Positions 1 to 41,380 of a stretch of 41,380 bases of DNA are shown piece after piece; position 1 is the first letter of the stretch, and each line of letters starts with the position of its first letter. The stretch comes from a virus: the IMG/VR virus record IMGVR_UViG_3300040801_004188. One strand, given 5' to 3'. Made by a program: the position numbers and the translations under genes. The notes beneath the pieces are model-generated. The model ran no database searches, was not told the origin of the DNA, and saw only the letters and a program-made list of their open reading frames with translations.

Positions 1-117
1 TCGCGGAACCGATCTTCCTCCGGGGTTCCAGGTTATGTTCGTGCGACGACCAACCCAGACTGTGACTCGTGGGTGAGGAAGTTGATCGACTGGTGGATTG
101 GAGAGGATGGGTTTCCA
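1..117. repeat. 117-bp segment identical to 41264..41380 (end overlap of a circular or terminally redundant genome)
   Basis: Base-by-base comparison of both window ends; both copies lie in frame inside the terL reading frame. Confidence 0.95.
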
Positions 118-978
118 ATTCCAGAGCGGGCCGGTGTAATTCGGTATTTCGTCCGAGTGGATGACACGATCCATTGGGCCGACTCACCGGATGAATTGAC
201 CGCGAAACATGGAAAGCACGTTCGCCCAAAGTCCCTGACCTTCATTCCATCCAAACTGGAAGATAATAAGATCCTGATGGAGAAAGACCCTGCCTATCTC
301 GCTAACCTCATGGCGTTGCCCAGAGTGGAAAGGCAGCGACTCCTTGGAGGGAACTGGAACGTTCGTGCTGCTGCGGGGATGTACTTCAAGCGTGAGAATA
401 TGCCATTGGTTGACGTGTTGCCTGGGGGCTGGACCAAGGTTTGTCGGTATTGGGACAAAGCTGCAACGAAGCCCAATGAGAACAACCCGGACCCTGATTG
501 GACTCGCGGACTAAAAATGTACGCTTATCCTGATGGCACTTACGTAGTTGCTGGTTTATCGAGCGACCGAAACACTCCGGCTGAAATTGAAAAACTAATT
601 AAGAACACAGCGTCACACGATACTGCGGCTGTGCCGATTTATGTTGAGCAAGAGCCCGGATCAGCTGGTGTGGCTGATGCCCAAAATATGGTTAGACTTC
701 TTTCAGGGTACGACGTTAGGATCAGGAAACCGACAAAGAATAAAGTAACTCGTGCTTTGCCGGTTTCAGCTCAAGCAGAGGTTGGCAACATAAAGGTACT
801 TCGGGCACCATGGAATGATGAGTTTTTCACCGAGCTGGAAAACTTTCCTCCAGAGTCCACGAAACCCTTCAGGGTCAAGTCGGATGAGGAGAGTCTTGGA
901 CACGACGACATTGTTGACGCATTATCGGGCGCGTTCAATGAGTTGTGTGAGGACAAGTCAATTTTGGATGTTCTTTAA
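1..978 (+). CDS. terL: Terminase large subunit, C-terminal (nuclease) part; continues from 40796..41380
   Basis: Frame 1 is open from base 1 (SRNRSSSGVPGYVRATTNPDCDSW...). The same residues end the open frame at 41264..41380. The listed GTG at 73 is internal. The joined product is about 481 aa. Confidence 0.9.
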   Translation, partial: SRNRSSSGVPGYVRATTNPDCDSWVRKLIDWWIGEDGFPIPERAGVIRYFVRVDDTIHWADSPDELTAKHGKHVRPKSLTFIPSKLEDNKILMEKDPAYLANLMALPRVERQRLLGGNWNVRAAAGMYFKRENMPLVDVLPGGWTKVCRYWDKAATKPNENNPDPDWTRGLKMYAYPDGTYVVAGLSSDRNTPAEIEKLIKNTASHDTAAVPIYVEQEPGSAGVADAQNMVRLLSGYDVRIRKPTKNKVTRALPVSAQAEVGNIKVLRAPWNDEFFTELENFPPESTKPFRVKSDEESLGHDDIVDALSGAFNELCEDKSILDVL

Positions 979-991
979 AGGAGATTAAAAA

Positions 992-2920
992 ATGGGCAGA
1001 AAAGGTAATTACAAAAACCATTCAGGGCAGAATAGGAGTCAGCAAGCAGAGCAGGACGCCCTCAATGAGGCGGTGAGAAACTCACCTATTGAAATTCAGC
1101 GGGAACACGCTTTTGGCATACAGAACGGATTGAGCGAGGCCCTGGGTTTTAATTTCCTTCAGGAAGCTGTGCAGCTCTCTCAGGCCACGACCATGTTTAA
1201 GAATGCACGTTGGTATTTGGTCTCCAATATGAGGCAGCTCTTGTCCCAAATTTATGTAGAGTTCGGTTTGGTTTCCACAGTTGTGGATATTCCCGTGGAA
1301 GACGGTTTTAGGGGCGGAATTGATATTCAGACCGATGAGTTGGAAGAGAAGGACATCATTCGGCTTAAAAAAGTCATGGAGCGAAACGACGACCTTGGAG
1401 AAGCAAAGCAGGCCACTAAATGGAAGCGTCTCTATGGTGGAGGTGCCGTTCTCATTATTACCGACTCTCCGGCCCACAAACCCTTGGACATTAAAACTCT
1501 CAAGGAAGACAGTCTGATCGAGTTTAAAGCGATTGATATGTGGGAACTTTATGGGGAGCAGATGAACATCCCCGAAACTGATGCCAATGGTTTGAGCGAT
1601 ACACTTCGGTACGAGCAGCAGGAGTTCTTTACTTACTACGGTCGAAAAGTGCATAGGTCACGAGTCATTATTCTTAAAGGTAAAGAGCCACCATCTTTTA
1701 TCCGCCCTCGCCTGCGCGGGTGGGGCTTTTCCGTAGTCGAGGCTTTAGTCCGGTCCATCAACCAATATCTCAAGGCCACGGACCTATCTTTTGAGGTACT
1801 TGATGAGTTTAAGTTGGATATCTTTAAAATCAAAAACCTGACCAACACTCTACTGGACTCTCAGGGCACACAACGGGTTCGGCAGCGTGTGGACCTTGCC
1901 AACAAAAACAAAAATTATCTTAACTCAATAGTGATGGACGCCGACGATGACTACATTCAGAAGCAGCTGTCCTTTGCTGGACTGTCGGACGTAATGGCTG
2001 GTATTCGAATGCAGGTGGCGTCTGATATGCGGATGCCCATGACGAAGCTCTTCGGCGTGTCTTCTGCGGGCTTTAATTCAGGTGAAGACGACATAGAAAA
2101 TTACAACGCTATGATCGAGTCGGATGTGCGGGCGACGATCAAGTGGGACCTCATGCGAATGGTCGAACTGCGCTGTCAACAACTCTTCGGTTTTGTGCCC
2201 GACGATCTGACCATCACTTTCGAGCCCCTTCGAGTGATGAGTTCGGAACAAGAAGAGACTGTCAAAACCTCAAAGTTTAACCGTTTGCTGGCGGCCCGAC
2301 AGGCTGGAGAAATCAGCTCTAAAGAGTTTAAGGAAGCCGTGAACCGCGACGACCTGTTGCCAATCCGATTGGAGATCACCGAGGACGACCTGTCCTTGGA
2401 AGAGGAGTTTGCTGAAGAAGAGGATGTTGCGGCCCCTGGCGGCGCTCCGGCGTCCACCCTGTCTGCGCCTGAATCGCCTGCGGCTAAAAACCAGGGCGTC
2501 CGTCAAATAGCTGTGATGGGTCTAATCTCCCAGGGTTACATCTTGACCGGAAAACGGAAAGACAATGGTCTGTGGGCTTTTCCGGGTGGTCACATTGACG
2601 CCGGGGAAACCCCTGTTCTAGCGGCTTGCCGAGAGTGCTTCGAGGAAACGGGTATTGAGCCTCCAATCCTGCAAGTGCAGCAGCTCAAGCCCGAAACCTT
2701 CACTTCTCATCGCGCTGATGGGGTCCAGTTCACGGTCCACCCATTTATCTGTGAATTATCCGAGCGAGAAATGGCGCGCACTACGGTGGACCCGGACTCC
2801 GAGTTTTCAGTCCTTCGATGGGTGGAGATCAATCCAGAGACTCCTGAGTTGAAGCCGGAAAGCCGCCACGCATTCCGTGACCTAATTTGTGAACACTTTT
2901 TTGGAGGTAACAATGATTAA
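992..2920 (+). CDS. Portal protein with a C-terminal Nudix hydrolase domain
   Basis: 642 aa directly after terL, with RBS AAAGGAG. Size and position fit a portal. After an acidic, Pro/Ala-rich linker, residues about 503-642 carry an exact Nudix box, GHIDAGETPVLAACRECFEETGI (2588..2656). Confidence 0.85.
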   Translation: MGRKGNYKNHSGQNRSQQAEQDALNEAVRNSPIEIQREHAFGIQNGLSEALGFNFLQEAVQLSQATTMFKNARWYLVSNMRQLLSQIYVEFGLVSTVVDIPVEDGFRGGIDIQTDELEEKDIIRLKKVMERNDDLGEAKQATKWKRLYGGGAVLIITDSPAHKPLDIKTLKEDSLIEFKAIDMWELYGEQMNIPETDANGLSDTLRYEQQEFFTYYGRKVHRSRVIILKGKEPPSFIRPRLRGWGFSVVEALVRSINQYLKATDLSFEVLDEFKLDIFKIKNLTNTLLDSQGTQRVRQRVDLANKNKNYLNSIVMDADDDYIQKQLSFAGLSDVMAGIRMQVASDMRMPMTKLFGVSSAGFNSGEDDIENYNAMIESDVRATIKWDLMRMVELRCQQLFGFVPDDLTITFEPLRVMSSEQEETVKTSKFNRLLAARQAGEISSKEFKEAVNRDDLLPIRLEITEDDLSLEEEFAEEEDVAAPGGAPASTLSAPESPAAKNQGVRQIAVMGLISQGYILTGKRKDNGLWAFPGGHIDAGETPVLAACRECFEETGIEPPILQVQQLKPETFTSHRADGVQFTVHPFICELSEREMARTTVDPDSEFSVLRWVEINPETPELKPESRHAFRDLICEHFFGGNND

Positions 2921-3125
2921 TTGGTATCCGGGAGTAACGCTGAGGGAGCTTGAAAAGGAAGCAATTCAAAAGGCCCTTCAGTTCTATCGCTGGAACAAAA
3001 CCGCAACTGCCCAGAGCTTGGGCATCTCGGTCCGTACCATCGACAATAAAATTGCAAAGTACGAGATTAAGAACCCAGACGAAAAACCCAAAACAGAGGA
3101 TCTTACCAATGGGATACACGCCTAA
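2913..3125 (+). CDS. Fis/NtrC-type helix-turn-helix DNA-binding protein (70 aa)
   Basis: ATG at 2913 follows GGAGG and overlaps the portal stop. LRELEKEAIQKALQFYRWNKTATAQSLGISVRTIDNKIAKY matches the Fis-type HTH pattern. Confidence 0.7.
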   Translation: MINWYPGVTLRELEKEAIQKALQFYRWNKTATAQSLGISVRTIDNKIAKYEIKNPDEKPKTEDLTNGIHA

Positions 3126-3324
3126 ACCTGGTTTTCGTTGGAATCCGATGTTGAGCTACCCGCGCAATGCGGGCTGCCCATGTGGGTCTGGCTTGAAGTT
3201 CAAGAAGTGCCACAAAGACAAAGTCCCGCCGGTCATTCCAACCCCAGAAAAGTTAAAAGAGGAAGCTGCCAAACTACGCGCAAAGGAGGCCCAGAATGAG
3301 GAAGCCAAGTCAATGGCAACATGA
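3109..3324 (+). CDS. Small SEC-C metal-binding motif protein (71 aa)
   Basis: Internal ATG at 3109 after AGAGGA. CPCGSGLKFKKCH matches the SecA C-terminal zinc motif. The listed start at 2950 would overlap the HTH gene. Confidence 0.7.
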   Translation: MGYTPKPGFRWNPMLSYPRNAGCPCGSGLKFKKCHKDKVPPVIPTPEKLKEEAAKLRAKEAQNEEAKSMAT

Positions 3325-3621: not shown

Positions 3622-3860
3622 ATGTTTTTGTATTGTGCTTTGTGGATGCGAGAAACAAGGTTTGGTTTCTTGAAAAGAGGGGCGATCTGTTTCGATTGAC
3701 CAATGAGCTTGAGGACGCCCTCGGGTTTTACACTCGGGATAAAGCGGAGCGACTTCTTCAGGACCTTTTGGAGCACAACGAAGAGTACAACAATTTTTTC
3801 AGCAAGCTCGAAGTGAAGGATTTTTTCTACTATGAAAACAAAACAGCTCTCACCCATTGA
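3618..3860 (+). CDS. Hypothetical protein (80 aa)
   Basis: ORF in the operon context; no motif recognised. Confidence 0.6.
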   Translation: MNVFVLCFVDARNKVWFLEKRGDLFRLTNELEDALGFYTRDKAERLLQDLLEHNEEYNNFFSKLEVKDFFYYENKTALTH

Positions 3861-4791
3861 GGACGATAAAGAAGGTCAGGACCGGATTGAAAAGCTGATG
3901 AAGCGAATCTGGAGACAGCGAATCTACCTGCCTCTTTTGCGACAGCTCCGAAGGAAACAGACGTCTGTGGCGAATTCCAACGATCCAGTCTACGACGCTT
4001 TAGCTTCGGGTCGCATCAGGTTTGACAGGGGCAAGGTCACTGGGAGATTCAACGCCTCCATATCCAAGCGTCTTCGGGAGTTGGGCGGCCAATATGACCG
4101 CGCCTTAAAGGCCTATCGGTTACCGAAAGCAGCCCTGACAACGGACATGAAAAGTGCAATCGCCCTGTCCGAGACAAACTTTTTAAAGACCATGCAGGCC
4201 ATGGACCGAGAACTTAGTAAAATGTTGCCGGAAGAAATTGCCGGGTCCATGAAGTTTGAGAAGATTTTTGACACTACGCTTTTTAAGGTAAACAAGGATA
4301 TTGAGGACAAGATGAAGGGCTTGATTGTGGGCCCGAAATTGACAAAAGAAGGGCGAGCAAGATTTGCCGAGGAGTACACGACCAACCTCCAGAGGTACAT
4401 TAAGGATTTCACGGAAAAAGAAGTGTTAAAGTTGCGAAAGACAGTGCAGAAGCACGTTTCCGAGGGTGGCCGGTATGAGGATCTGGTCAAGTCCATCGAA
4501 AAAAGTTATGGGGTCACGACAAATAAGGCTAAATTTCTGGCGCGGCAAGAAACCAATTTGATGACCTCGGCCTTTAAGAAAACCCGGCTGACGGATTACG
4601 GGGTCAATGAATATCGGTGGTCCACGGTGGCGGGGTCAGCTAGCCATCCGGTTAGGCCCATGCACAAAAGACTGGACGGAAAAACTTTTTCTTGGGATGC
4701 TCCCCCTATAACCGATGATAAGGGCAATCGGAATCATCCTGGAGAAGATTACAATTGTCGGTGTAAAGCGATCCCCATTGTGAGGTTTTAG
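3832..4791 (+). CDS. Minor head / head morphogenesis protein (Mu F / SPP1 gp7-like)
   Basis: The C-terminal HPVRPMHKRLDGKTF...NHPGEDYNCRCKAIPIV is the typical MuF-family signature. It sits downstream of the portal. Confidence 0.85.
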   Translation: MKTKQLSPIEDDKEGQDRIEKLMKRIWRQRIYLPLLRQLRRKQTSVANSNDPVYDALASGRIRFDRGKVTGRFNASISKRLRELGGQYDRALKAYRLPKAALTTDMKSAIALSETNFLKTMQAMDRELSKMLPEEIAGSMKFEKIFDTTLFKVNKDIEDKMKGLIVGPKLTKEGRARFAEEYTTNLQRYIKDFTEKEVLKLRKTVQKHVSEGGRYEDLVKSIEKSYGVTTNKAKFLARQETNLMTSAFKKTRLTDYGVNEYRWSTVAGSASHPVRPMHKRLDGKTFSWDAPPITDDKGNRNHPGEDYNCRCKAIPIVRF

Positions 4792-5867
4792 TGATTAAGA
4801 AGATGCTCAATGAAATTCAAAAGACCCTGAATGGTAAGCCGAGGGTTTACTACGGTCTGCATTTCGCCGAGGGTGTCGCCGAATATAGCGATGACCAAGG
4901 AGAGTATCGGATTTTTGTTAGCAATCAGACTGCTAAAAAGATGAACCAGACTTTCGCGGGTTGCCATCTGTATGTAAACCATGTCAATGAAGTTGATTAC
5001 GATAACCCTAATCCCGACCAAAAGCCTGACGGGTACGTGGTCGAGTCGTTTTTTAATCAAGCCGATGGCAAGCATTGGGCCAAGTTTATCGTAACGTCTG
5101 AAGCCGGTGAGGAAGCCATTCGCAAGGGGTGGACCCTTTCAAACGCCTATTACATCAAAAAGTTTGGTGAGGGTGGTCGTTGGCACAATGTTGAATATCG
5201 AAATGAAGTTCTCGAAGGTGAGTTCTACCATCTCTCGCTCGTCCCAAATCCACGTTACGAGTATTCTGTGGTATTGACCCCGGAAGAATTTAAGGAATAC
5301 AATGCCCGTCAAGAGGCAGAACTTTACAATATAGCCAATTCTAAAGGAGAAGAATCCATGCTTAATCTTTTTAAGAAAACGAAAGTCGACAATTCTAAAG
5401 AACTCGCCGAGACAATGGTCACTTTGCCTAAATCCAAGGTGGACATGACTTTGGAAGACTGCGCCCGTTTGGCCGATCAGGTAACAAATGAAAAGGACGA
5501 GCCTAAAAAGTGCAACATGGAAGATCTCGTTGAGGTTAACGGCGAAGAAATGACCGTTAAGGAATTGGTGTCCGCTTACAACAAGTCCAAGAAAAATGAA
5601 GAGGACGAGGCCAAAAAGAAAGAGCAGGCCAAGAATGAAGAGGACGAGGAAGAAGCGGAAAATAAAAAGAACGAGGAAGACGAAGAAGCCGAAAACAAAA
5701 AAAACAAAGAGGACGAAGAAAAACAAAACGCCCTCGAAGCCCAAAGAAAAAAGGCTGAGTTCGAGGCTTTGAAAAACGCTCACCTCGATCAGACAAGCGT
5801 TGTGCGAATCGAAACTGGAGCTGACATGATTGCGCGCGGAAAAGCTCGCTACGGTTCTGGACGGTAA
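4791..5867 (+). CDS. Putative prohead protease/scaffolding protein (DUF2213-like) with an E/K-rich C-terminal region
   Basis: Lies between the MuF-like and capsid genes. HLSLVPNPRYE resembles DUF2213. The coiled-coil-like charged tail includes EEDEEEAENKKNEEDEEAENKKNKEDEE. The start is GTG 4791 or ATG 4803. Confidence 0.6.
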   Translation: MIKKMLNEIQKTLNGKPRVYYGLHFAEGVAEYSDDQGEYRIFVSNQTAKKMNQTFAGCHLYVNHVNEVDYDNPNPDQKPDGYVVESFFNQADGKHWAKFIVTSEAGEEAIRKGWTLSNAYYIKKFGEGGRWHNVEYRNEVLEGEFYHLSLVPNPRYEYSVVLTPEEFKEYNARQEAELYNIANSKGEESMLNLFKKTKVDNSKELAETMVTLPKSKVDMTLEDCARLADQVTNEKDEPKKCNMEDLVEVNGEEMTVKELVSAYNKSKKNEEDEAKKKEQAKNEEDEEEAENKKNEEDEEAENKKNKEDEEKQNALEAQRKKAEFEALKNAHLDQTSVVRIETGADMIARGKARYGSGR

Positions 5868-24002: not shown

Positions 24003-24250
24003 TGTGGTCAGTTTTAAGCAGCGCTTTTAGTTTATTAGGCCCAATGATTTTCTGGGGCCTGAAGCAATGGATGCGAACCAGAGACAAGAACGAGCAGATG
24101 GAAAAGAGCTACTATGCTTTTTTGACTGCCGTTGACATGAGCGGGCAGGTAAAGGTAGCCAACCATATCTCAGCCGTGCAAGCTCTTAAAGCCGAACAAG
24201 ACCGGTTGATCGCCGAACACGAAAAGGAGAATGGTAATGAAGATTCCTAA
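24002..24250 (+). CDS. Single-pass membrane protein (holin or i-spanin candidate)
   Basis: 82 aa. N-terminal TM VLSSAFSLLGPMIFWGL, then a charged helical tail. It lies directly upstream of the endolysin. Confidence 0.6.
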   Translation: MWSVLSSAFSLLGPMIFWGLKQWMRTRDKNEQMEKSYYAFLTAVDMSGQVKVANHISAVQALKAEQDRLIAEHEKENGNEDS

Positions 24251-25658
24251 AATCAGAGAAAAAGGAGAACACGTTCTAACCCTTCAGCGACGCCTTAATG
24301 ATTTGGGTGCTGAACCTAGACTTACCGAAGATGGTGTCTTCGGGAAAATCACTAAGGCAGCGGTTTCCGCGTTCCAAAAATCTAAAGGCCTTCGTGGGTC
24401 CGGGGTGATTGGTCCAAAAACCATGACTTTTTTGGGATTGGTAACTGATGAAGAGTTAGGAAAAGACGGTGGTCATACCATCTCAAGTGGACGTGATTCC
24501 GATGAAGGCACCCGCGAGTGGTATCGACGGATGTTTCACTTCTGCCAAATTGACCCTGGTTATCACAAAGCTGTGGAACGTGATGCCCAATTGGTTTTGG
24601 CAAACAAGTCTCGCTACGAAAAAGTTGGCGACCATTTCAGACTTCCTTGGTGGTTGATTGGAATTATTCACCTGCTCGAAGGGTCTTGTGACTTTGACCG
24701 AGTCCTGCACAATGGTCAGAAGATCATAGGGACGGGCCGAAAAACATCAATCGTGCCAAAGGGTCGTGGACCTTTTGCCACTTGGGAAGACGCTGCGGTG
24801 GACGCCCTCACTGGCAGGTTCACAAAAATTGATAAGGACGCGGAGATTGGAAACCTCCTGTTCTACGTGGAACGGTACAATGGTACTGGATACATTTCCG
24901 GCGCTGGAATGGCCGAAACCTCGCCGTACCTGTGGGCGCGTACAAACGTCAACGACGACTATGGGAAATATGTCTACGATGGTCGATTCGACCCGTCACA
25001 GAGCGCCCAATTACAAAGCGGATTCTGTGCTGTGCTTAAAACTTTGGAGCAAGGCGGATTAAAGATCACTTACGGCGACTTTGACAAGAGTCCTGTTAAA
25101 CAAAAACCTGCCACCAACATCACTCGCGAGCTAATCGCTGATGAACTTTGCGCTGCGGTGCAGGCCGACGTGGATGCGAAATTAAGGGAGACCGGGGGTA
25201 AGAACCGGGGAAGACGGATTGATGAATTCAACCTTCGCGCTAAATCTTATTTGGGTGCGCCTTACTGTGCTAGTGGGCTTTGGGTTGCCATTGATGATGT
25301 TTGTAAGAAATATGGGCTGTCTAACCCGGTTCCCCCCACGGCCTCCAGTCAAAACTTTCGCCGCCCATCTTTTGTTCCCTCTCGGTATTTGAAAAAATCT
25401 GGCGGAGAGCGTGGTGATTTTGGAGTTCTCCAGAGTCGAAATCGCCCAGGTTTTGGGCATCTTACTCTTTTACGGGCGCCTCAAATGGGTAAGGAGTTTT
25501 TGACTCTTGAGTACAACACCAGCCCGAGAGGTTCCCGTGATGGTGATGGAGCCTATGCCTTAAAAAGAAATACCGTGGATGGATCAGTTTTGAACAACTA
25601 CAAAAACTTTGTCTGCTTCACTGATATTCCTCAGTGGGTCGTGGACCACAATTCCTAA
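24237..25658 (+). CDS. Multidomain endolysin: PG-binding, lysozyme-like (COG5526-like) and CHAP/NlpC-P60-like domains
   Basis: ATG 24237 is 7 nt after AAGGAG. PG_binding_1 pattern: LQRRLNDLGA...DGVFGKITKAAVSAFQ. Middle domain: HLLEGSCDFDRVLHNGQ...VPKGRGPF. C-terminal Cys/His pair: APYCASG ... GFGHLTLL. Confidence 0.8.
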   Translation: MKIPKIREKGEHVLTLQRRLNDLGAEPRLTEDGVFGKITKAAVSAFQKSKGLRGSGVIGPKTMTFLGLVTDEELGKDGGHTISSGRDSDEGTREWYRRMFHFCQIDPGYHKAVERDAQLVLANKSRYEKVGDHFRLPWWLIGIIHLLEGSCDFDRVLHNGQKIIGTGRKTSIVPKGRGPFATWEDAAVDALTGRFTKIDKDAEIGNLLFYVERYNGTGYISGAGMAETSPYLWARTNVNDDYGKYVYDGRFDPSQSAQLQSGFCAVLKTLEQGGLKITYGDFDKSPVKQKPATNITRELIADELCAAVQADVDAKLRETGGKNRGRRIDEFNLRAKSYLGAPYCASGLWVAIDDVCKKYGLSNPVPPTASSQNFRRPSFVPSRYLKKSGGERGDFGVLQSRNRPGFGHLTLLRAPQMGKEFLTLEYNTSPRGSRDGDGAYALKRNTVDGSVLNNYKNFVCFTDIPQWVVDHNS

Positions 25659-25667
25659 GGAGGAAGA

Positions 25668-26819
25668 ATGAAAAAACTAAAAGCAGCGGCTCTTGCGGTT
25701 GCCGCGTCAGTAGGGGCTTTCATCGGATCGCAAGGTGACACTATCTCCGATAGCCTATCAAGTAAAGAGCGTTTTATTGTCATCGGCCAACAGCGTGGAA
25801 TGATCCAAGCCTTTGGTGAAGGGGTCCAGGTAAAGAAGCAGCTTGAGTACGACAATGGATACGTCATCAAAGCCACTAAAGAAAAAGCCGAAGAATTAAA
25901 AGCAAAAGGCCTGAAGGTCTATCAGGACCGCCAATACTCGATTGAAATGGGTGGTAAGCCCTGCGAGTGTGAACCTTGTCCAAAACCGACTCCTGATCCT
26001 GTGCCCGTCCCAGACCAGTTCAGTGATGATGTTCCATGGGGAACTCAACGAATCAAAACCCTCGAAGCCTGGAAGCACTCAAAGGGCGACAACATTATAG
26101 TTTGTGTTGCTGATACCGGTGTGGACGTTCAGCATGAGGATTTGATCGACGCAATTGCCGGAGGCCGGTCTTTTGTCGATGGAAACGCTTCTTACCAAGA
26201 CGACGAGGGCCACGGAACCCATGTGGCTTCCACCATCGCTGCCAGAATCAATCAAAAAGGCATCGTCGGCGTATCTCAAGCAAAAATCTACGCGGTCAAG
26301 GTGCTCAATTCTGCTGGGTCTGGTTGGGGTTCAGACATTGCCGATGGTATTCGTCATTGTGTTCAAGCTGGAGCTTCGGTGATCAACTTGAGTCTTGGAT
26401 CCCCGGCTGCCTATGGTCCAGACCCCTATATCCGTGATGCGGTTTTAGAGGCCGCCCAAGCCGGAGTCATAGTGGTTTCGGCAGCGGGTAACGATAGTGG
26501 TCCGGTTGGGTACCCGGCAGCCATTGAATGCCCGAACTGTTACGCCATTGCCGCTTCAGATTCAAACAACAGAATCGCGTCCTTCAGCAGCAGGGGCCCA
26601 GAAATTGACTTCATAGCTCCAGGGGTCAACATCCGCGGCGCTCGCTTAGGTGGCGGATATGTCAATTTAAATGGGACTTCCATGGCAGCTCCACACGCGG
26701 CAGCGGTTTTCGCGCTGGCCCTTGAGCGTGGGCGCACAAAAATAAAGGCAACTCCAATCGGGTTGCCTCCAGAGCATCAGGGCCAGGGCCTTATTGATGC
26801 TTTAAATTCAGTCAAATAA
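25668..26819 (+). CDS. Secreted subtilisin-family (S8) serine protease with an I9-like propeptide
   Basis: Signal peptide MKKLKAAALAVAASVGAF and a propeptide-like segment. Triad motifs are VADTGVD (D149), HGTHVAS (H182) and GTSMAAPH (S338), with oxyanion AAGND. RBS AAGGAGG. Confidence 0.9.
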   Translation: MKKLKAAALAVAASVGAFIGSQGDTISDSLSSKERFIVIGQQRGMIQAFGEGVQVKKQLEYDNGYVIKATKEKAEELKAKGLKVYQDRQYSIEMGGKPCECEPCPKPTPDPVPVPDQFSDDVPWGTQRIKTLEAWKHSKGDNIIVCVADTGVDVQHEDLIDAIAGGRSFVDGNASYQDDEGHGTHVASTIAARINQKGIVGVSQAKIYAVKVLNSAGSGWGSDIADGIRHCVQAGASVINLSLGSPAAYGPDPYIRDAVLEAAQAGVIVVSAAGNDSGPVGYPAAIECPNCYAIAASDSNNRIASFSSRGPEIDFIAPGVNIRGARLGGGYVNLNGTSMAAPHAAAVFALALERGRTKIKATPIGLPPEHQGQGLIDALNSVK

Positions 26820-35513: not shown

Positions 35514-36173
35514 ATGAGCAGTAAAAAAGACTTGTCAATGGACGAGATTAAACCAGCAGACTACAACCCGAGAATAATTAGCGACCCTGAAAGTAACGCC
35601 CTGGATTATTCAATGAAGGAGTTTGGTGATATTTCAGGCATTACTTGGAACCGTCAAACGGGAAATCTTGTGACTGGACACCAGCGGTACAACCGTCTTG
35701 TGGAAAAGTACGGTAAATTGACTTTTGGTCGCCTTATAAATGGGCGACGAGACATCATTAGCGAAGGAAACGTGCCGACTGGTTACGACCTTCGAGAAGT
35801 TGATTGGCCTGAAGACAAGGAATTGGCCGCAAACTTGGCCGCCAATTCTCACACCAATCAAGGTAAATGGGACCTGGAGGCGATGCCTGAACTTTTGGCA
35901 AAACTGGAAGACGACTTTGCCACTAACCTTCGGCTGGATATGTTGGCTGCGGATTTGGACATTGACCTTATGGCGGCAGGTTCAGGTGAAGAGTCCGATA
36001 GCGGGGGAAGTTGGGAGCCTGACGAGAAAACTGCCAATGTTCCAGAGGGCGACCGCAGGCCACCTGTAAAGTTCATGATTAAGTGTCGGTTTGAAGATCA
36101 GGAAGACCTGGTTCAAGCCATTAGAGATATGTTGGCCGAAGCTGATTTTGAAGAAGTTGAAATTTTATGCTGA
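35514..36173 (+). CDS. Stand-alone ParB-like N-terminal domain protein with an acidic C-terminus
   Basis: IKPADYNPRII...FGDISGITWNRQTGNLVTGHQRYNRL...LAANLAANSHTNQGKWD is the ParBc pattern usually fused to phage DNA methyltransferases. RBS GGAGGG. Confidence 0.8.
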   Translation: MSSKKDLSMDEIKPADYNPRIISDPESNALDYSMKEFGDISGITWNRQTGNLVTGHQRYNRLVEKYGKLTFGRLINGRRDIISEGNVPTGYDLREVDWPEDKELAANLAANSHTNQGKWDLEAMPELLAKLEDDFATNLRLDMLAADLDIDLMAAGSGEESDSGGSWEPDEKTANVPEGDRRPPVKFMIKCRFEDQEDLVQAIRDMLAEADFEEVEILC

Positions 36174-37057
36174 ACATTCTTGTCGCTTATCCGTACTTGG
36201 ATAGTAAGAGCATTACTTTAATCAACGGCCTGAAGGCCAGGGGTGAGTGTCGGTTTATCTTGGACTCTGGGGCCTTTTCTGCTTTCAATTCTGGTCACGA
36301 AATTGATCTTAAAGAATACACTCAATTTGTAAAAAACCGGGAGGTAGACTTTGACTTTGCTGTTCAGCTTGATGTTGTGGGCAATAAGAAAGAGACAATT
36401 GAAAACCTCAAGTACCAGTTGTCCTGTGGAGCCCAAGTTTCCCCCGTTTTCACACGAGGCATGGACTACGAGTACTTGGACGTGATCACCAATAAGCACC
36501 GCCTGACGTTCTGTGGGGGCCTTAAAATGGGTGTGGGAGCGGAAATGAGGAAGTATGGCTTCCCGTATATCAAGAAGCTCTCTACAGCGGGGCGTTTAAA
36601 CAGGTGTCACCTGCTTGGTATTGGGGCCGATGAGATCGCCAAAACCTTCAGGCCCTTCTCAATGGATACGAGCACCAGCACAACTACAGCCAGATATGGT
36701 GCGTTACCGTTATACAACGGGTTTGGCAAACAAAAGTGGTACACGAGAAAGACCTTGAGACTGGAGCGCAGGAAAGCCGCGCCTATGTTGGCTCGCCTCG
36801 GGTTTAAACCTGAAGTCCTGGAGCGCTTGATTCACTCGGATGCAGCATGGAGAGCCACGACTCCGAAATTTGACATCGACGAAGATCGCAGTTTGGCGCA
36901 GAATATTTGTCAAGTGTCGGTCCTTTTAAAAAACATGGATGTGGAAAAAAACATAGGAGTCAAGATGTTCACGGCCTGCACGGACATTCACTCATTAACC
37001 GAAACGATGGGAGCGTACAAATGGATCAAGGACCACAATTTGCTAGAAAAATTCTGA
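36167..37057 (+). CDS. dpdA: DpdA-like DNA-guanine transglycosylase (TGT superfamily)
   Basis: ILDSGAFSAF, CHLLGIG and FSMDTSTS motifs. It overlaps the ParB-like stop by 7 nt and lies next to queCDE/folE. Confidence 0.75.
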   Translation: MLNILVAYPYLDSKSITLINGLKARGECRFILDSGAFSAFNSGHEIDLKEYTQFVKNREVDFDFAVQLDVVGNKKETIENLKYQLSCGAQVSPVFTRGMDYEYLDVITNKHRLTFCGGLKMGVGAEMRKYGFPYIKKLSTAGRLNRCHLLGIGADEIAKTFRPFSMDTSTSTTTARYGALPLYNGFGKQKWYTRKTLRLERRKAAPMLARLGFKPEVLERLIHSDAAWRATTPKFDIDEDRSLAQNICQVSVLLKNMDVEKNIGVKMFTACTDIHSLTETMGAYKWIKDHNLLEKF

Positions 37058-37584
37058 TTCTTAATGGCGGCGGCGCGGAATCGGCTGTGATGCACAGTAA
37101 GTTGATGGGTGCCAAAATTTACAGCCTCTTTTTTGGGACAGGAAACAATTATCACGAAGTTGGGTACGCTAAAAACATTGCTCGAAAAACAGGCGCAGAA
37201 TTTGTGTTTCGAGAAAGCGGATTAAAGTGGGATTCATCAGAGCAGGTCCTTGGTCGAAACGCAGTGTTGACAAATTTAGCTATGACTGTCGGTAAGGAGT
37301 ATGGAGTGGTCGATCTATTTTTAGGTGTGGAGTTGAGTTCAAAGTTCATAGACAATCAGCCTCAATACAATTTGGCTTTAGGTCAGTTGCTGGCGCCATA
37401 CGGGTTCACGCTTCACACGCCGTTTCTTAATGAGTGGCGATTCGCGTTTCCCGATAAGCAGGCGATTTTTAAATATTTGAAACACAATGGCTGGACCACT
37501 GAAGAATTTTACAGTTGTTTCCAGCGCCAAAAGTGTTGGAAGTGCAGAAAATGTTTAGCAGAAAAGGAGGTTTACGGTGATTAG
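37021..37584 (+). CDS. queC: QueC-like 7-cyano-7-deazaguanine synthase (divergent PP-loop)
   Basis: KILILNGGGAESAVMH stands in for the usual SGGxDS motif. The C-terminal cluster SCFQRQKCWKCRKC is C-x6-C-x2-C-x2-C. The start is at the internal ATG 37021. Confidence 0.7.
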   Translation: MDQGPQFARKILILNGGGAESAVMHSKLMGAKIYSLFFGTGNNYHEVGYAKNIARKTGAEFVFRESGLKWDSSEQVLGRNAVLTNLAMTVGKEYGVVDLFLGVELSSKFIDNQPQYNLALGQLLAPYGFTLHTPFLNEWRFAFPDKQAIFKYLKHNGWTTEEFYSCFQRQKCWKCRKCLAEKEVYGD

Positions 37585-38023
37585 CACTAAAGAGTTTTCA
37601 GGTTTTAGCTGCTGTTTTAGGCAATGGCGAGCTACCCACTCTCATTGTCAGTTTCTCCACGGGTACGGAGTCAGTTTTAAAATCTGGTTTGAGGGCGAGA
37701 TGGACGACAGAAATTGGGTCGCTGATTTTGGCGGGTTTAAAGGTCTAAAGCAATACTTCGAGTGCATCTTTGACCACACTGTAGTGATCGCTGACGACGA
37801 TCCAAAGTTGATGGAGTTTGAGGCATTGGCTGAGTCTGGAGTCATCCAGCTAATTACTTTGCCCCATGTGGGTTGCGAGAGGTTTGCAGAGCACGTTTTT
37901 GTTCAAGCTGATGAATTTGTTAAAGAAGTTACTGGAGGCCGAGTTCGGGTTTTACAGGTTGAATTCCGCGAGAATAACAAAAACTCAGCCATTTGCAGGA
38001 GGGAAGATGTTACGGCTCAATGA
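37577..38023 (+). CDS. queD: QueD/PTPS-like 6-carboxytetrahydropterin synthase (divergent)
   Basis: GTG start after AAGGAGG. HCQFLHGYG corresponds to the QueD C-x3-HGH motif. Size and position fit. Confidence 0.65.
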   Translation: MISTKEFSGFSCCFRQWRATHSHCQFLHGYGVSFKIWFEGEMDDRNWVADFGGFKGLKQYFECIFDHTVVIADDDPKLMEFEALAESGVIQLITLPHVGCERFAEHVFVQADEFVKEVTGGRVRVLQVEFRENNKNSAICRREDVTAQ

Positions 38024-38624
38024 TATTTTCTGGACCGTTCAGGGAGAGGGGTTTCACACGGGGAGACGCGCTCTTTTTGTTCGGATGCCTTACTGTAACT
38101 ACGAGTGCCCTTGGTGTGATACCGAGTACAACTCGATTAATTTTAAACTCACGCCGGATGAGTTTAGAAAATTTGCGACACAAGAAAAAGCCAGATTAGC
38201 CGTTATTACAGGTGGCGAACCAGCAATCAATAAGCAGACTCCATTGGTGACTGCGATTTTGAAAGATTTAGGGTTTACCGTAGCCATAGAGACTAACGGC
38301 TCGGTTCCAGCTCCCCCGGGTGTGGATTTTATAACTGTCAGTCCCAAAGCCTACACCAAGGGGAAGTTGGAGCCTTTTTATGTTCACCCAGACCTTTTGC
38401 GAGACTCTCGTCCAAAGCAATACAAGTACGTTTACGAGATGGATTTTGATACCAAGTACCTGGACCGCCACCGCGGTGAGCTTGGGGACCTTCGGACTTG
38501 GTTTTATCTGGGACCAGAATATAACGTGTTCAGCCATTCAGTTGACCAGTGCCTTGAGTACATCAAAAACAACCCAGAGTGGCGCCTGAACCTGCAAACT
38601 CACAAATGGATAGGTGTAAAATGA
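38007..38624 (+). CDS. queE: QueE 7-carboxy-7-deazaguanine synthase (radical SAM)
   Basis: ATG 38007 follows AGGAGGG. Motifs are FWTVQGEG, CNYECPWCDT (C-x3-C-x2-C) and VITGGEP. Confidence 0.85.
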   Translation: MLRLNDIFWTVQGEGFHTGRRALFVRMPYCNYECPWCDTEYNSINFKLTPDEFRKFATQEKARLAVITGGEPAINKQTPLVTAILKDLGFTVAIETNGSVPAPPGVDFITVSPKAYTKGKLEPFYVHPDLLRDSRPKQYKYVYEMDFDTKYLDRHRGELGDLRTWFYLGPEYNVFSHSVDQCLEYIKNNPEWRLNLQTHKWIGVK

Positions 38625-39196
38625 GCGACGCAAAATCAAATGTAGAGAAGTACGTCAGGAGCGCCATGCTGAGTCTGGGTTTGGACGTTATGGCCGACCC
38701 GAGTCTCAAGGACACGCCTGCCAGAATCGCTAAAATGTGGGTAGAGGAAGTCTTCAGCGGACTCTTCGAGAAACCGCCTAAGATGACCATGTTTCCGGCC
38801 CCGTCCGCGCAAATGGTCATTGAGGCCGGGATCACCGTCCGGTCCACCTGTGAACACCACTTCCAGCCAATCTATGGGGTAGCCCACGTTGCCTATATTC
38901 CTGAAAAGAGAATTGTGGGCCTGTCAAAACTGAACAGGGTCGTGGATTACTTCGCTCGCCGTCCGCAGGTGCAGGAAAAGTTGACCAATGAAGTGGCAGA
39001 ATTCCTAAAAGAAAGCCTGCAAACTGAGCACGTCGCCGTTGTGATCGACGCCGAGCACTTCTGTGTAAAGATGAGAGGTATCAAGCACACCGACTGCATG
39101 ACCAGAACGTCTGTTTTGTCGGGCAAATTTTTACAGGCGGGTCTGGCTCGTCAAGAATTCTTCGACGCCATCCCGAAAATCAATGGGTCGAGGTAA
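38621..39196 (+). CDS. folE: GTP cyclohydrolase I
   Basis: ATGA coupling to queE. Motifs are STCEHHFQP and HFCVKMRG. Confidence 0.9.
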   Translation: MSDAKSNVEKYVRSAMLSLGLDVMADPSLKDTPARIAKMWVEEVFSGLFEKPPKMTMFPAPSAQMVIEAGITVRSTCEHHFQPIYGVAHVAYIPEKRIVGLSKLNRVVDYFARRPQVQEKLTNEVAEFLKESLQTEHVAVVIDAEHFCVKMRGIKHTDCMTRTSVLSGKFLQAGLARQEFFDAIPKINGSR

Positions 39197-40799: not shown

Positions 40800-41380
40800 G
40801 TGTTGTCGATGCCTACCTCGCGGCTTTTGACGAGGAAGAGAAAGCTCAAGAAGTGATTGAGTTGGGGCCCCAACAGGGTCCGCAAACTGCCTTTTTGGGC
40901 AGTGAGGCAGACATCGTCATCTATGGCGGGGCCGCGGGTGGTGGAAAGTCCTATGGACTGCTTCTCGAACCACTCCGCCACATTGACCATAACCCAAGGT
41001 TTGGTGGGGTCATCTTTCGCCGAAATAGTAAGCAGGTCCGAAACGAGGGCGGTCTGTGGGATGAGTCGGAGGAGTTGTACCGAGCCTTTGGTGGTCGGCC
41101 AAAAGAGATGAGCTTGAGCTGGAGCTTCCCGTCTGGGGCCACCATGCAGTTCGACCATTTAGAGTACGAGCGTACGGTTCTGAACTGGCAGGGCTCTCAG
41201 ATTCCCTACATAGGCTTCGACGAATTGACACACTTCACCGAAAAGCAATTCTTCTATATGCTCTCGCGGAACCGATCTTCCTCCGGGGTTCCAGGTTATG
41301 TTCGTGCGACGACCAACCCAGACTGTGACTCGTGGGTGAGGAAGTTGATCGACTGGTGGATTGGAGAGGATGGGTTTCCA
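40796..41380 (+). CDS. terL: Terminase large subunit, N-terminal ATPase part (open at window end; continues at base 118 after the overlap)
   Basis: The ATG overlaps the upstream TGA. Walker A is YGGAAGGGKSYG and Walker B is YIGFDELTHF. There is no stop before 41380. It is absent from the ORF track because it is open-ended. Confidence 0.9.
   Translation, partial: MSVVDAYLAAFDEEEKAQEVIELGPQQGPQTAFLGSEADIVIYGGAAGGGKSYGLLLEPLRHIDHNPRFGGVIFRRNSKQVRNEGGLWDESEELYRAFGGRPKEMSLSWSFPSGATMQFDHLEYERTVLNWQGSQIPYIGFDELTHFTEKQFFYMLSRNRSSSGVPGYVRATTNPDCDSWVRKLIDWWIGEDGFP
41264..41380. repeat. Second copy of the 117-bp end overlap
   Basis: Identical to 1..117. Confidence 0.95.

Follow-up and report, generated by a model that had tools for sequence, protein, structure and literature searches.

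Nudix hydrolase domains fused to phage head proteins have been described computationally by Iyer, Burroughs, Anantharaman and Aravind (2022, Viruses 14:1977, section 3.5.2 and Fig. 5a; PMC9503650), who reported such fusions with the portal, MuF and head protease proteins. These authors inferred that the enzymes are packaged in the head and injected to act against NAD- or ADPR-derived molecules at infection; as an alternative, they proposed that head-associated enzymes counter immunity aimed at the portal or terminase (PMC9503650). In MuF polymorphic toxins and polyvalent proteins, a head-internal carrier likewise bears exchanged C-terminal effectors (PMC5576092; PMC5512222), and their presumed route leads from the capsid interior into the cell (Jamet et al. 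2017, PMC5576092; Iyer et al. 2017, PMC5512222). Phage T4 shows with Alt and the internal proteins IPI-III that a head can carry enzymes and eject them. T4 also encodes the Nudix enzyme NudE (gene e.1), which is active on FAD, ApnA, ADP-ribose and NADH according to its record annotation, and the gene of which adjoins internal-protein genes. Head-packaged enzymes are the earliest weapons that a phage can deploy, and very few have been studied beyond T4 Alt and the internal proteins.

Here we analyse a portal-Nudix fusion gene in a viral genome (IMGVR_UViG_3300040801_004188; the window, that is, the whole stretch of DNA analysed, is 41,380 nt long). The preliminary description of this locus was aware of no characterised portal-Nudix fusion, but the architecture is not new: both it and the packaging reading have been published computationally (PMC9503650), and the fusion is widespread in related phages and present in a cultured phage, Faecalibacterium phage FP_Brigit (AUV56649.1, 828 aa; PHROG 15528). 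The FP_Brigit protein also combines a PF06381 portal, a linker and a Nudix domain with an intact box, and its linker is acidic and rich in Pro, Ala and Thr, opening with 'APGG'. It differs in its host (a Firmicute), in its portal identity of only ~26%, in a Nudix domain for which the BLAST alignment shows neither DPDxE nor RHAKxD, and in a further ~200 aa downstream (a 'HPRDxxGxF' motif and a domain of unknown kind) that make a longer polyvalent tail. The fusions of Iyer et al. share with the present one a Nudix domain on a head protein, the portal being named, and the inference that it is packaged and deployed; however, theirs is a survey-level statement without an analysis of the present clade (PMC9503650). 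They assign the fusions to a 'T4 NudE-like' clade, whereas the present domain shows a superfamily-level relation to T4 NudE only, and the junction motif, tail swapping and missing cleavage mechanism are not discussed (PMC9503650). As a genomic observation, the locus adds detail to an already reported system rather than a new kind. What appears new from the sequence comparison is that the tail is attached precisely where the portal naturally ends, and that it is repeatedly swapped or lost among relatives. A compact complete genome, a clean two-module protein and natural 'minus' relatives make the published hypothesis directly testable.

The fusion gene and its genomic context

The genome is complete (41.3 kb, with a 117-nt terminal overlap) and circularly permuted, so that the terminase gene is split by the window ends. 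The C-terminal part of the large terminase lies at 73..978 (Terminase_6C, E 1.2e-20; PHROG 979, E 6.6e-95), on the plus strand like all features described below. Directly 3' of it, within a head module that comprises MuF, scaffold, decoration and major capsid protein (MCP) genes, is the portal-Nudix fusion gene (992..2920, 642 aa), which has a Shine-Dalgarno sequence AGGAG 5' of ATG 992. The terminase-portal-head gene order is common to Bdellovibrio phage phi1422, the nearest cultured relative, and to the relatives L003 and L005. The portal core (1244..2263, aa 85-424) belongs to the PF06381 Phage_portal_3 / TIGR01555 HI1409 family, with a Pfam match to Phage_portal_3 over aa 85-424 (E 1.6e-65, 221.6 bits vs a cutoff of 33.8), a match to PHROG 146 (E 4.7e-85) and a TIGR01555 score of 163 bits, under the strict equivalog cutoff of 196. 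The solved portals nearest in sequence are those of Pam3 (8hds, E 3.9e-21) and E217 (gp19, 8fvh, E 9.6e-11), followed by 9b41 (E 1.9e-10).

As the preliminary description had stated, the portal frame runs open through the linker into the Nudix domain, with 642 codons and no stop in ORF 992..2920. The linker (2387..2497, aa 466-502, 37 residues) is acidic and then Pro/Ala-rich, and its sequence, EEEFAEEEDVAAPGGAPASTLSAPESPAAKNQG, was confirmed in the ORF exactly as first quoted. In the full-length AlphaFold model, it has pLDDT <50 and no secondary structure, and it forms a flexible tether between two modules that fold independently; in Pfam, PF06381 is followed by NUDIX. A conserved junction motif, STLSAPESPAAKN, occupies 2453..2491 (aa 488-500) and was defined by tail comparison across 120 homologs.

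The same comparisons bear on the possibility that two genes were joined by a sequencing or assembly error. Bare portals of the clade do end at the motif where the tail starts, and a lost stop codon would mimic a fusion in a single genome. However, an intact orthologous fusion gene, 91% identical and with the same architecture, is present in two independent samples, and a search for the fusion in related phages returned about 60 further clusters of diverged homologs from many sources (44–57% identity) that keep the portal, the Nudix domain and the full box, in addition to the cultured FP_Brigit. Relative to the closest relative, the linker shows no indels, and the substitutions in it (8 synonymous vs 4 nonsynonymous) fall in a codon pattern. 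Ahead of the domain, the fusion ORF was found to offer no in-frame start codon preceded by a Shine-Dalgarno sequence from which a separate Nudix gene could be read, which agrees with the original reading: the SD-like strings at 2381-2424 encode Glu residues in the acidic linker, and the Met of 'VMGL' varies among homologs. On this comparative evidence, an artefact is effectively refuted. Recoding at the junction was considered as well, for a +1 shift at GCT AAA AAC would lead to a stop 7 codons on, mimicking a bare portal. A-K-N is encoded by GCT AAA AAC here but by GCA AAG AAC in the closest relative, where the A-run is interrupted; this leaves a conserved slippery site unsupported, and the candidate was rejected.

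Downstream, a Fis-type HTH gene (2913..3125; HTH_8, E 3.5e-13) overlaps the portal stop. Its most likely start is ATG 2913, with GGAGG inside the last Nudix codons and an 8-nt overlap, and its position is conserved with or without a Nudix tail (phi1422 gp46; a 70-aa gene in L003). The MuF-family minor head protein (3832..4791; Phage_Mu_F, E 4.2e-17) carries no effector domain, unlike that of MuF-toxin systems; in other phages, effector domains packaged in the head usually ride on MuF. The next gene (4791..5867) encodes a scaffold-like protein with a weak match to PHROG 2229 (E 2.6e-5). By position it is homologous to Pa193 gp24, which is described as a putative scaffolding protein (PMC11456595), and its L005 homolog has a weak Pa193_gp24 match.

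The Nudix domain and its candidate substrates

The Nudix hydrolase domain (2498..2917, aa 503-642) was recognized by Pfam in the whole protein at aa 508-628 (E 1.9e-16, 60.7 bits vs a cutoff of 21.1), and the isolated domain matches NUDIX (PF00293) with E 8.6e-18, the scores ranging over 60.7–65.1 bits (cutoff 21.1). Its Nudix box, G-x5-E-x7-RE-x2-EE-xG-U, reads GHIDAGETPVLAACRECFEETGI (2588..2656, aa 533-555). A strict regular expression for the box matches just once when the whole window (41 kb) is translated in six frames, which excludes a chance motif. The box had been called 'perfect'; its position and catalytic residues stand, but the first U of REUXEE is Cys, at a position that varies across the family (C/V/T/A). 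The residues G533, E539, R547, E548, E551, E552 and G554 are invariant among 41 full-length fusions. Two family-specific motifs follow: DPDxE (2789..2803, aa 600-604), then WxWV, with D600, D602, E604 and W610 invariant in the alignment of the fusions, and the C-terminal ELxPExRHAxxD (2846..2881, aa 619-630), where D630 is invariant and the conservation of E619, L620 and H626 reaches at least 90%. The AlphaFold model of the domain (pLDDT 91.7, pTM 0.83) retrieved only Nudix enzymes among its top 50 PDB matches in Foldseek (E down to 1.5e-10), the best structural neighbours being NudJ/YmfB (TM 0.72, 3dku) and RppH (TM 0.70, 6vck and 4s2x). From the alignment and the model, the active-site residues are judged intact and the predicted fold is confident.

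The preliminary description listed host signals or NAD-derived molecules, RNA caps and the nucleotide pool as possible substrates, none of which is favoured by sequence or structure. Among the curated NCBIfam Nudix equivalogs (MutT, RppH, NudE, NadM, CoAse), no threshold was reached and all scores fell far below cutoff: 30.7 bits vs 97.9 (TIGR00586) and 33.4 vs 148 (PRK10776) for MutT 8-oxo-dGTPases, at best 32.3 bits vs cutoffs of 116–259 for RppH, 18 bits vs 169 for the NudE ADP-compounds hydrolase, and 16–23 bits vs cutoffs of 350–450 for NadM-type enzymes. Assignment by subfamily model was rejected on these scores. Assignment by structure was rejected also, NudJ, RppH, AtNUDX1, MutT, Ap4Aase, GDPMH and NadM scoring similarly. 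A Pro ~16 residues past the box is a specificity marker of ADP-ribose pyrophosphatases (NudF/NadM type); a conserved Pro ~16 residues after the box is absent from the homolog alignment. E. coli NudJ/YmfB and RppH share the compact single-domain Nudix fold and a similar size, but they are free cytoplasmic enzymes with 20–27% identity, and they offer no ground on which to transfer substrate specificity.

For a possible membership in a 'T4 NudE-like' group, the likeness to T4 NudE that was found is at box level only. In hhalign, T4 NudE and the domain align with a probability of 96% over just 71 of ~150 columns at 25% identity, and in BLASTP over 42 residues around the box, with the C-terminal family motifs unaligned. 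NudE proteins of Acinetobacter T4-like phages match ~79% of the domain at 30–34%. T4 NudE is a free 151-aa protein not known to be in the virion, in contrast to the portal-fused domain described here.

Exchange of tails at the portal C-terminus

Across 120 homologs, the fusion junction ...STLxAPxxPxAK-N coincides with the natural C-terminus of bare clade portals (...KSTLxAKxAPEAK-stop), and tails of all types begin directly past the motif where bare portals stop. The tail states counted were Nudix, a K-module of ~65 aa, both, other and none, all tails following ...APxAK(N); among the fusions, N500 is at least 90% conserved. At least 23 tail gain/loss state changes are needed on the portal-core tree, and the comparison indicates that close relatives have time and again swapped, lost or replaced the Nudix tail. 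In one sister pair, P0006 carries the Nudix domain and P0063 is truncated past the same linker. Bare portals occur in phi1422 and L005; no separate Nudix gene adjoins the portal in L005, and none was found anywhere in phi1422. The Nudix module appears dispensable for portal function. Where it is retained, purifying selection on the domain is supported at the codon level, with 40 synonymous vs 19 nonsynonymous codon changes relative to the nearest relative.

The same Nudix subfamily is also found on other PF06381 portals and on a Mu gpI-type prohead protease, both of them proteins of the capsid interior. Pfam and PHROG returned nothing informative for the non-Nudix tails and the large N-terminal-Nudix proteins. 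The clade consists of widespread myophages of roughly 40–48 kb; the only genome match bearing on the host, a phage-like contig binned with a Gemmatimonadaceae MAG, was uninformative.

Presumed position in the head, possible release and probable role

The portal C-terminus had been said to face the head interior, and structural precedents bear this out: the C-terminal barrel of E217 gp19 projects into the capsid (PMC10329688), and C-terminal fusions to the T4 portal sit inside the capsid (PMC3012670). From these homologous portal structures and T4 fusions, in which the C-terminus points into the head, we infer an interior location for the Nudix domain, and up to 12 copies inside the virion would be a reasonable expectation. 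In T4, bulky C-terminal portal fusions are tolerated in just about half of the 12 positions (PMC3012670), so full 12-copy occupancy might be a problem. Two features that mark a head-packaged effector were found, namely a predicted enzymatic domain on the lumen-facing portal C-terminus and C-terminal modules that vary between related carriers and are swapped at a conserved junction. Compared with MuF systems, the carrier here is the portal itself, with 12 fixed structural copies, rather than a portal-bound protein of 1–2 copies as in SPP1, and the effector is a putative hydrolase of small molecules or caps rather than a toxin.

Delivery together with the DNA, also suggested at first, is not borne out, the domain being tied to the portal by ~37 residues with no supported cleavage site or protease. 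A domain tethered to the portal cannot leave the capsid, so delivery into the host would need linker cleavage. PHROG, Pfam and PDB searches recognised no prohead protease in the head module; ORF 4791..5867 matched no protease in Pfam or PDB, with E values up to 10 admitted, and a PHROG 'protease' only weakly. No AKN-like junction motif was found close to the N-terminus of the MCP, scaffold, MuF or decoration protein. With neither the motif near head-protein N-termini nor a recognised protease, the junction was rejected as a prohead-protease site. T4 internal proteins rely on a cleavable capsid-targeting sequence and the gp21 protease, for which no counterpart was identified here.

In the explanation that we consider somewhat probable as a whole, an accessory Nudix module extends a PF06381-type myophage portal beyond its natural C-terminus, with the disordered linker of ~37 residues in between. 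The portal would act as a capsid-targeting device, bringing up to 12 putatively catalytically competent copies into each head, a job that MuF proteins and prohead proteases may perform for other effector domains. Gain, loss and swapping of the module would fit a conflict or host-takeover function rather than a morphogenetic one. Its most likely job would be to hydrolyse, as the genome enters or shortly afterwards, an NDP-X compound of importance to the first minutes of infection, with an ADP-ribose- or NAD-derived immune signal or an RNA 5'-terminal nucleotide cap or diphosphate as candidate targets; enzymatic activity, timing and substrate are all presumptive here, as is the release by linker proteolysis that this job would require. 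If virion presence and hydrolysis of a defence signal or RNA cap hold true, the portal would provide a defined 12-copy delivery route, and also a scaffold of natural origin with which phage heads could be loaded with cargo.

A bolder proposal, which we regard as quite improbable, treats the portal C-terminus as a 'cargo slot': the junction would be cleaved, twelve exchangeable effectors would be freed, and the Nudix domain would be ejected to destroy an immune signal or cap. The effector would be Nudix, the K-module of ~65 aa or other domains, and action would fall in the first seconds of infection. If true, such a delivery system for counter-defence would be encoded by the portal and fixed in its stoichiometry, and it would differ from packaging by way of MuF or a CTS.

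The missing cleavage site and protease, which leave release from the virion unsupported, speak in turn for an enzyme that, late in infection, works in the cytoplasm of the producing cell as part of portal protein that is unassembled or still assembling, for example by blunting defences triggered by packaging proteins or by adjusting nucleotide or cofactor pools; the fusion would then only guarantee late co-expression, and the head copies would be incidental. Many standalone proteins of 130–230 aa in the same Nudix subfamily suggest that the enzyme works untethered, the cultured-phage proteins nearest to the domain are cytoplasmic NudE- or NadM-type enzymes, and the alternative of Iyer et al., in which immunity against the portal or terminase is countered, points the same way (PMC9503650). 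However, a separate late gene would give co-expression without risk to portal assembly, the tails always stand at the lumen-facing end past the natural C-terminus, and co-expression alone does not readily account for the repeated and independent choice of procapsid-interior partners (portal C-terminus, MuF, Mu gpI protease). We consider late cytoplasmic action possible but unlikely.

The favoured head-packaged enzyme can also be set against a purely structural or packaging role of the domain as a plug, a sensor of the DNA end or of nucleotides, or a spacer at the portal crown, with catalysis irrelevant. The domain is located where the P22 and E217 portals have a DNA-contacting barrel, and C-terminal GFP portals of T4, which alter the control of prohead expansion, indicate that appended domains can influence head maturation (PMC3012670). 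Such a role is nevertheless very improbable, as the box residues for metal binding and catalysis do not vary among fusions at 44–57% identity, although a module with a purely structural part would have no need of them, and close relatives work with bare portals or unrelated tails.

The portal-Nudix gene and its conservation

The ORF at 992..2920 (+ strand) is open over 642 codons and encodes a Phage_portal_3 domain (PF06381, aa 85-424, Pfam E 1.6e-65) followed by a NUDIX domain (PF00293, aa 508-628, E 1.9e-16, or 8.6e-18 with the domain alone). The PHROG matches are consistent with Pfam (phrog_146 portal, E 4.7e-85; phrog_1198 MutT/NUDIX, E 1e-19). The Nudix box GHIDAGETPVLAACRECFEETGI (2588..2656, + strand) is identical to the one reported in the preliminary description, and it is the single match to a strict Nudix-box regular expression in the six-frame translation of the entire window. 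The linker, too, reads as quoted there, and the portal-Nudix ORF described previously is confirmed. The gene is preceded by the large terminase gene (73..978) and followed by genes for a Fis-type HTH protein, MuF, scaffold-like and cement/decoration proteins and the PF09950 major capsid protein.

An assembly artefact as the source of the fusion is excluded by several observations. A 91% identical ortholog (P0001) is intact on contigs of two different sequencing runs with unchanged gene order. Compared with this ortholog codon by codon, the linker (aa 466-502) has 8 synonymous and 4 nonsynonymous codon differences and zero indels, and changes in the Nudix part are mostly synonymous (40 synonymous-only vs 19 nonsynonymous codons). 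As noted before, the Nudix domain lacks a start of its own: ahead of it, no in-frame start codon is paired with a Shine-Dalgarno sequence. A search for the same fusion among relatives, proposed in the preliminary description, found about 60 separate 90%-identity clusters combining PF06381 and PF00293 at 44–57% identity among the 120 best database matches, and the G-x5-E-x7-RE-x2-EE-xG pattern is kept in virtually all of them. The fusion is therefore real and conserved. In the alignment of 41 full-length fusions, box residues G533, E539, R547, E548, E551, E552 and G554 are invariant, as are the family-specific positions W528, P531, D600, D602, E604, W610 and D630. The fused domain is probably an active enzyme; since the catalytic residues are invariant, a purely structural role is unlikely.

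The Fis-type HTH gene (HTH_8, 2913..3125), always found immediately 3' of the portal gene within this phage group, overlaps it by 8 nt and has its ribosome-binding site inside the last Nudix codons; the corresponding gene product of Bdellovibrio phage phi1422, gp46, carries the annotation sigma-54-dependent regulator. A small ORF that ends in a SEC-C-type zinc motif (CPCGSGLKFKKCH) is located between this gene and MuF (3109..3324, within ORF 2950..3324), and the ORF is kept in a close relative (L003; PF02810).

Exchange of tail modules among related portals

After marking the limits of the portal core in each of the 120 homologs, we compared what follows it. Bare portals of about 470–510 aa end in ...KSTLxAKxAPEAK, 0–3 residues and a stop, and extended portals keep this end motif, typically as ...STLxAPxxPxAKN(S), with the extra module directly after it; the version at the junction in the window is ASTLSAPESPAAKN. 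The tail is a Nudix domain in 53 proteins, a ~65-aa module with KWQFVxWYYKxHGGK at its end in 12, Nudix followed by this module in 8, and other unannotated sequence, sometimes of 300–400 aa, in 8, while 40 proteins have none. The non-Nudix tails gave no Pfam match. On a rough neighbour-joining tree of portal cores, Nudix presence changes at least 23 times, a figure that is only indicative given the star-like tree and a sample skewed to high-scoring (longer) matches. Very close proteins can differ: P0006 carries Nudix, whereas P0063 ends shortly after the same linker. The nearest cultured relative, phi1422, has a bare portal (55.7% identical), and its 45-kb genome lacks Nudix altogether; a second bare-portal relative (L005) has none near the portal. 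The shared end motif, varied tails, dissimilar close pairs and bare relatives therefore identify the Nudix tail as an accessory, exchangeable module on the natural portal C-terminus.

The alternative module (...DGGD...LWxKAKxASxKAFGKxKWQFVxWYYKxHGGK) is attached at the same junction in relatives within P0060–P0120, for example at aa 445-562 of P0086; P0061 has two copies, and the module sometimes lies 3' of Nudix. A short HPRDxxGxF motif recurs in the otherwise unrelated tails of P0101, P0114 and P0066, as well as after the Nudix domain at the C-terminus of the FP_Brigit portal (L001:5243-6469), and could serve multi-domain proteins packaged in the head as a common linker or processing element.

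Nudix subfamily, its fusion partners and known parallels

The Nudix tail scored 15–36 bits against the curated equivalogs for MutT, RppH, YtkD, NadM, NudE, CoAse, NudI and NudB, and reached none of their cutoffs (95–475). By sequence, the best PDB matches were MutT-like proteins and Bdellovibrio RppH (3ees), with E about 1e-7; by structure, they were E. coli NudJ/YmfB (TM 0.72) and RppH (0.70), closely followed by AtNUDX1, DR1025, GDPMH, MutT, Ap4A hydrolases and NadM. The nearest standalone relatives in cultured phages (30–34% identity) are the NudE proteins encoded by T4-like Acinetobacter phages and the NMNAT-Nudix proteins (NadM type) found in jumbo phages. The alignment with T4 NudE is restricted to the box (hhalign, 71 columns, 25% identity; BLASTP, 42 residues). 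Because no subfamily was reached, the neighbours span several types and T4 NudE aligns at the box alone, neither sequence nor structure singles out a substrate among ADPR-type compounds, dinucleoside polyphosphates, RNA 5' ends and (d)NTPs.

When the tail alignment was used as a profile in an exhaustive search, 99 representatives matched at E <1e-30 and 2,073 at E <1e-10. The subfamily occurs as standalone proteins of 130–230 aa and at the C-terminus of 600–1,030-aa proteins, both checked examples of which (P0182, P0213) are PF06381 portals with longer spacers. Other profile matches (P0140, P0134, P0143, P0146, P0144/P0150/P0155/P0161) comprise fusions to a Mu gpI-type prohead protease (P0140) and to L5 gp82-like, DUF5661 and VTC domains, the VTC fusion having two Nudix copies, as well as many proteins of 750–1,030 aa with an N-terminal Nudix domain and an uncharacterised remainder matching only phrog_25452.

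The portal of FP_Brigit, a cultured Faecalibacterium phage, is 26% identical and similarly has an acidic stretch, a Pro/Ala/Thr linker from 'APGG' and Nudix, but continues for about 200 further residues. PHROG 15528 ('portal protein') already covers portal plus Nudix, and the concept resembles MuF polymorphic toxins (PMC5576092) and polyvalent proteins (PMC5512222). The earlier view that such fusions are uncharacterised holds experimentally, since our literature search turned up no experiments on a protein of this kind; however, the architecture and its main interpretation have already been published as computational inference (Iyer et al. 2022, PMC9503650). The present analysis adds the precise site of attachment, at the natural end of the portal, the other modules that can occupy it and the range of proteins to which this Nudix subfamily is fused, and it makes explicit that delivery would depend on a cleavage step for which no support was found.

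Predicted location, release and genomic context

AlphaFold modelled the tail alone with confidence (pLDDT 91.7, pTM 0.83) in the expected strand-helix-strand Nudix topology. The full-length model shows two folded parts, the portal core and aa 503-639, and gives aa 466-502 a pLDDT <50 and no secondary structure; the protein is therefore predicted to consist of two independent modules on a flexible tether of ~37 residues. Among solved portals, those of the myophages Pam3 and E217/Pa193 are nearest. In E217 gp19, a helical barrel from the C-terminal part projects into the head, with residues 529-765 unresolved (PMC10329688), and C-terminal fusions to the T4 portal lie inside the capsid, tolerated in about half of twelve positions (PMC3012670). 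By analogy, the Nudix domain thus most plausibly lies in the capsid interior, a well-founded inference.

Most economically, the portal C-terminus would be the means by which an active enzyme is targeted to the capsid. Its benefit would be conditional, because the tail is dispensable and often swapped; such behaviour is typical of host-takeover or counter-defence functions. Since the tether has ~37 residues and the phage tail is >100 nm long, a tied domain could not pass, and action in the newly infected cell would therefore require proteolysis. This weakens the earlier proposal of delivery with the DNA: Pfam, PHROG and PDB searches recognised no prohead protease in the head module, and no second occurrence of the junction motif was found among the head proteins. 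ORF 4791..5867 has only a weak PHROG match and no Pfam or PDB protease match; its Pa193 counterpart is interpreted as a scaffold. The A-rich junction was rejected as a recoding site producing mixed bare and loaded subunits, as the nearest relative interrupts the A-run by a synonymous change. The main rival to capsid targeting, in which the enzyme acts in the late cytoplasm as part of unassembled portal and encapsidated copies are incidental, is less likely but credible.

The window, whose two ends (1-117 and 41264-41380) form an exact 117-nt direct repeat, represents a complete, circularly closed (permuted) phage genome of 41,263 bp in which the large terminase gene is split between the ends. 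An S8 subtilisin-family protease (25668..26819, E 2.5e-47), to our knowledge unusual for a 41-kb phage, is encoded outside the head module, after a protein with a peptidoglycan-binding N-terminal domain (24231..25658). A preQ0/7-deazaguanine gene set occupies 36907..39196, possibly from 36167, and comprises QueC-like (36907..37584), QueD/PTPS (37577..38023), radical-SAM QueE-like (about 37866..38624) and GTP cyclohydrolase I (38579..39196) genes, suggesting that the phage DNA is modified with 7-deazaguanine. The 296-aa ORF upstream (36167..37057), which had no Pfam match, could encode a DNA transglycosylase. The same cluster is present in L003.
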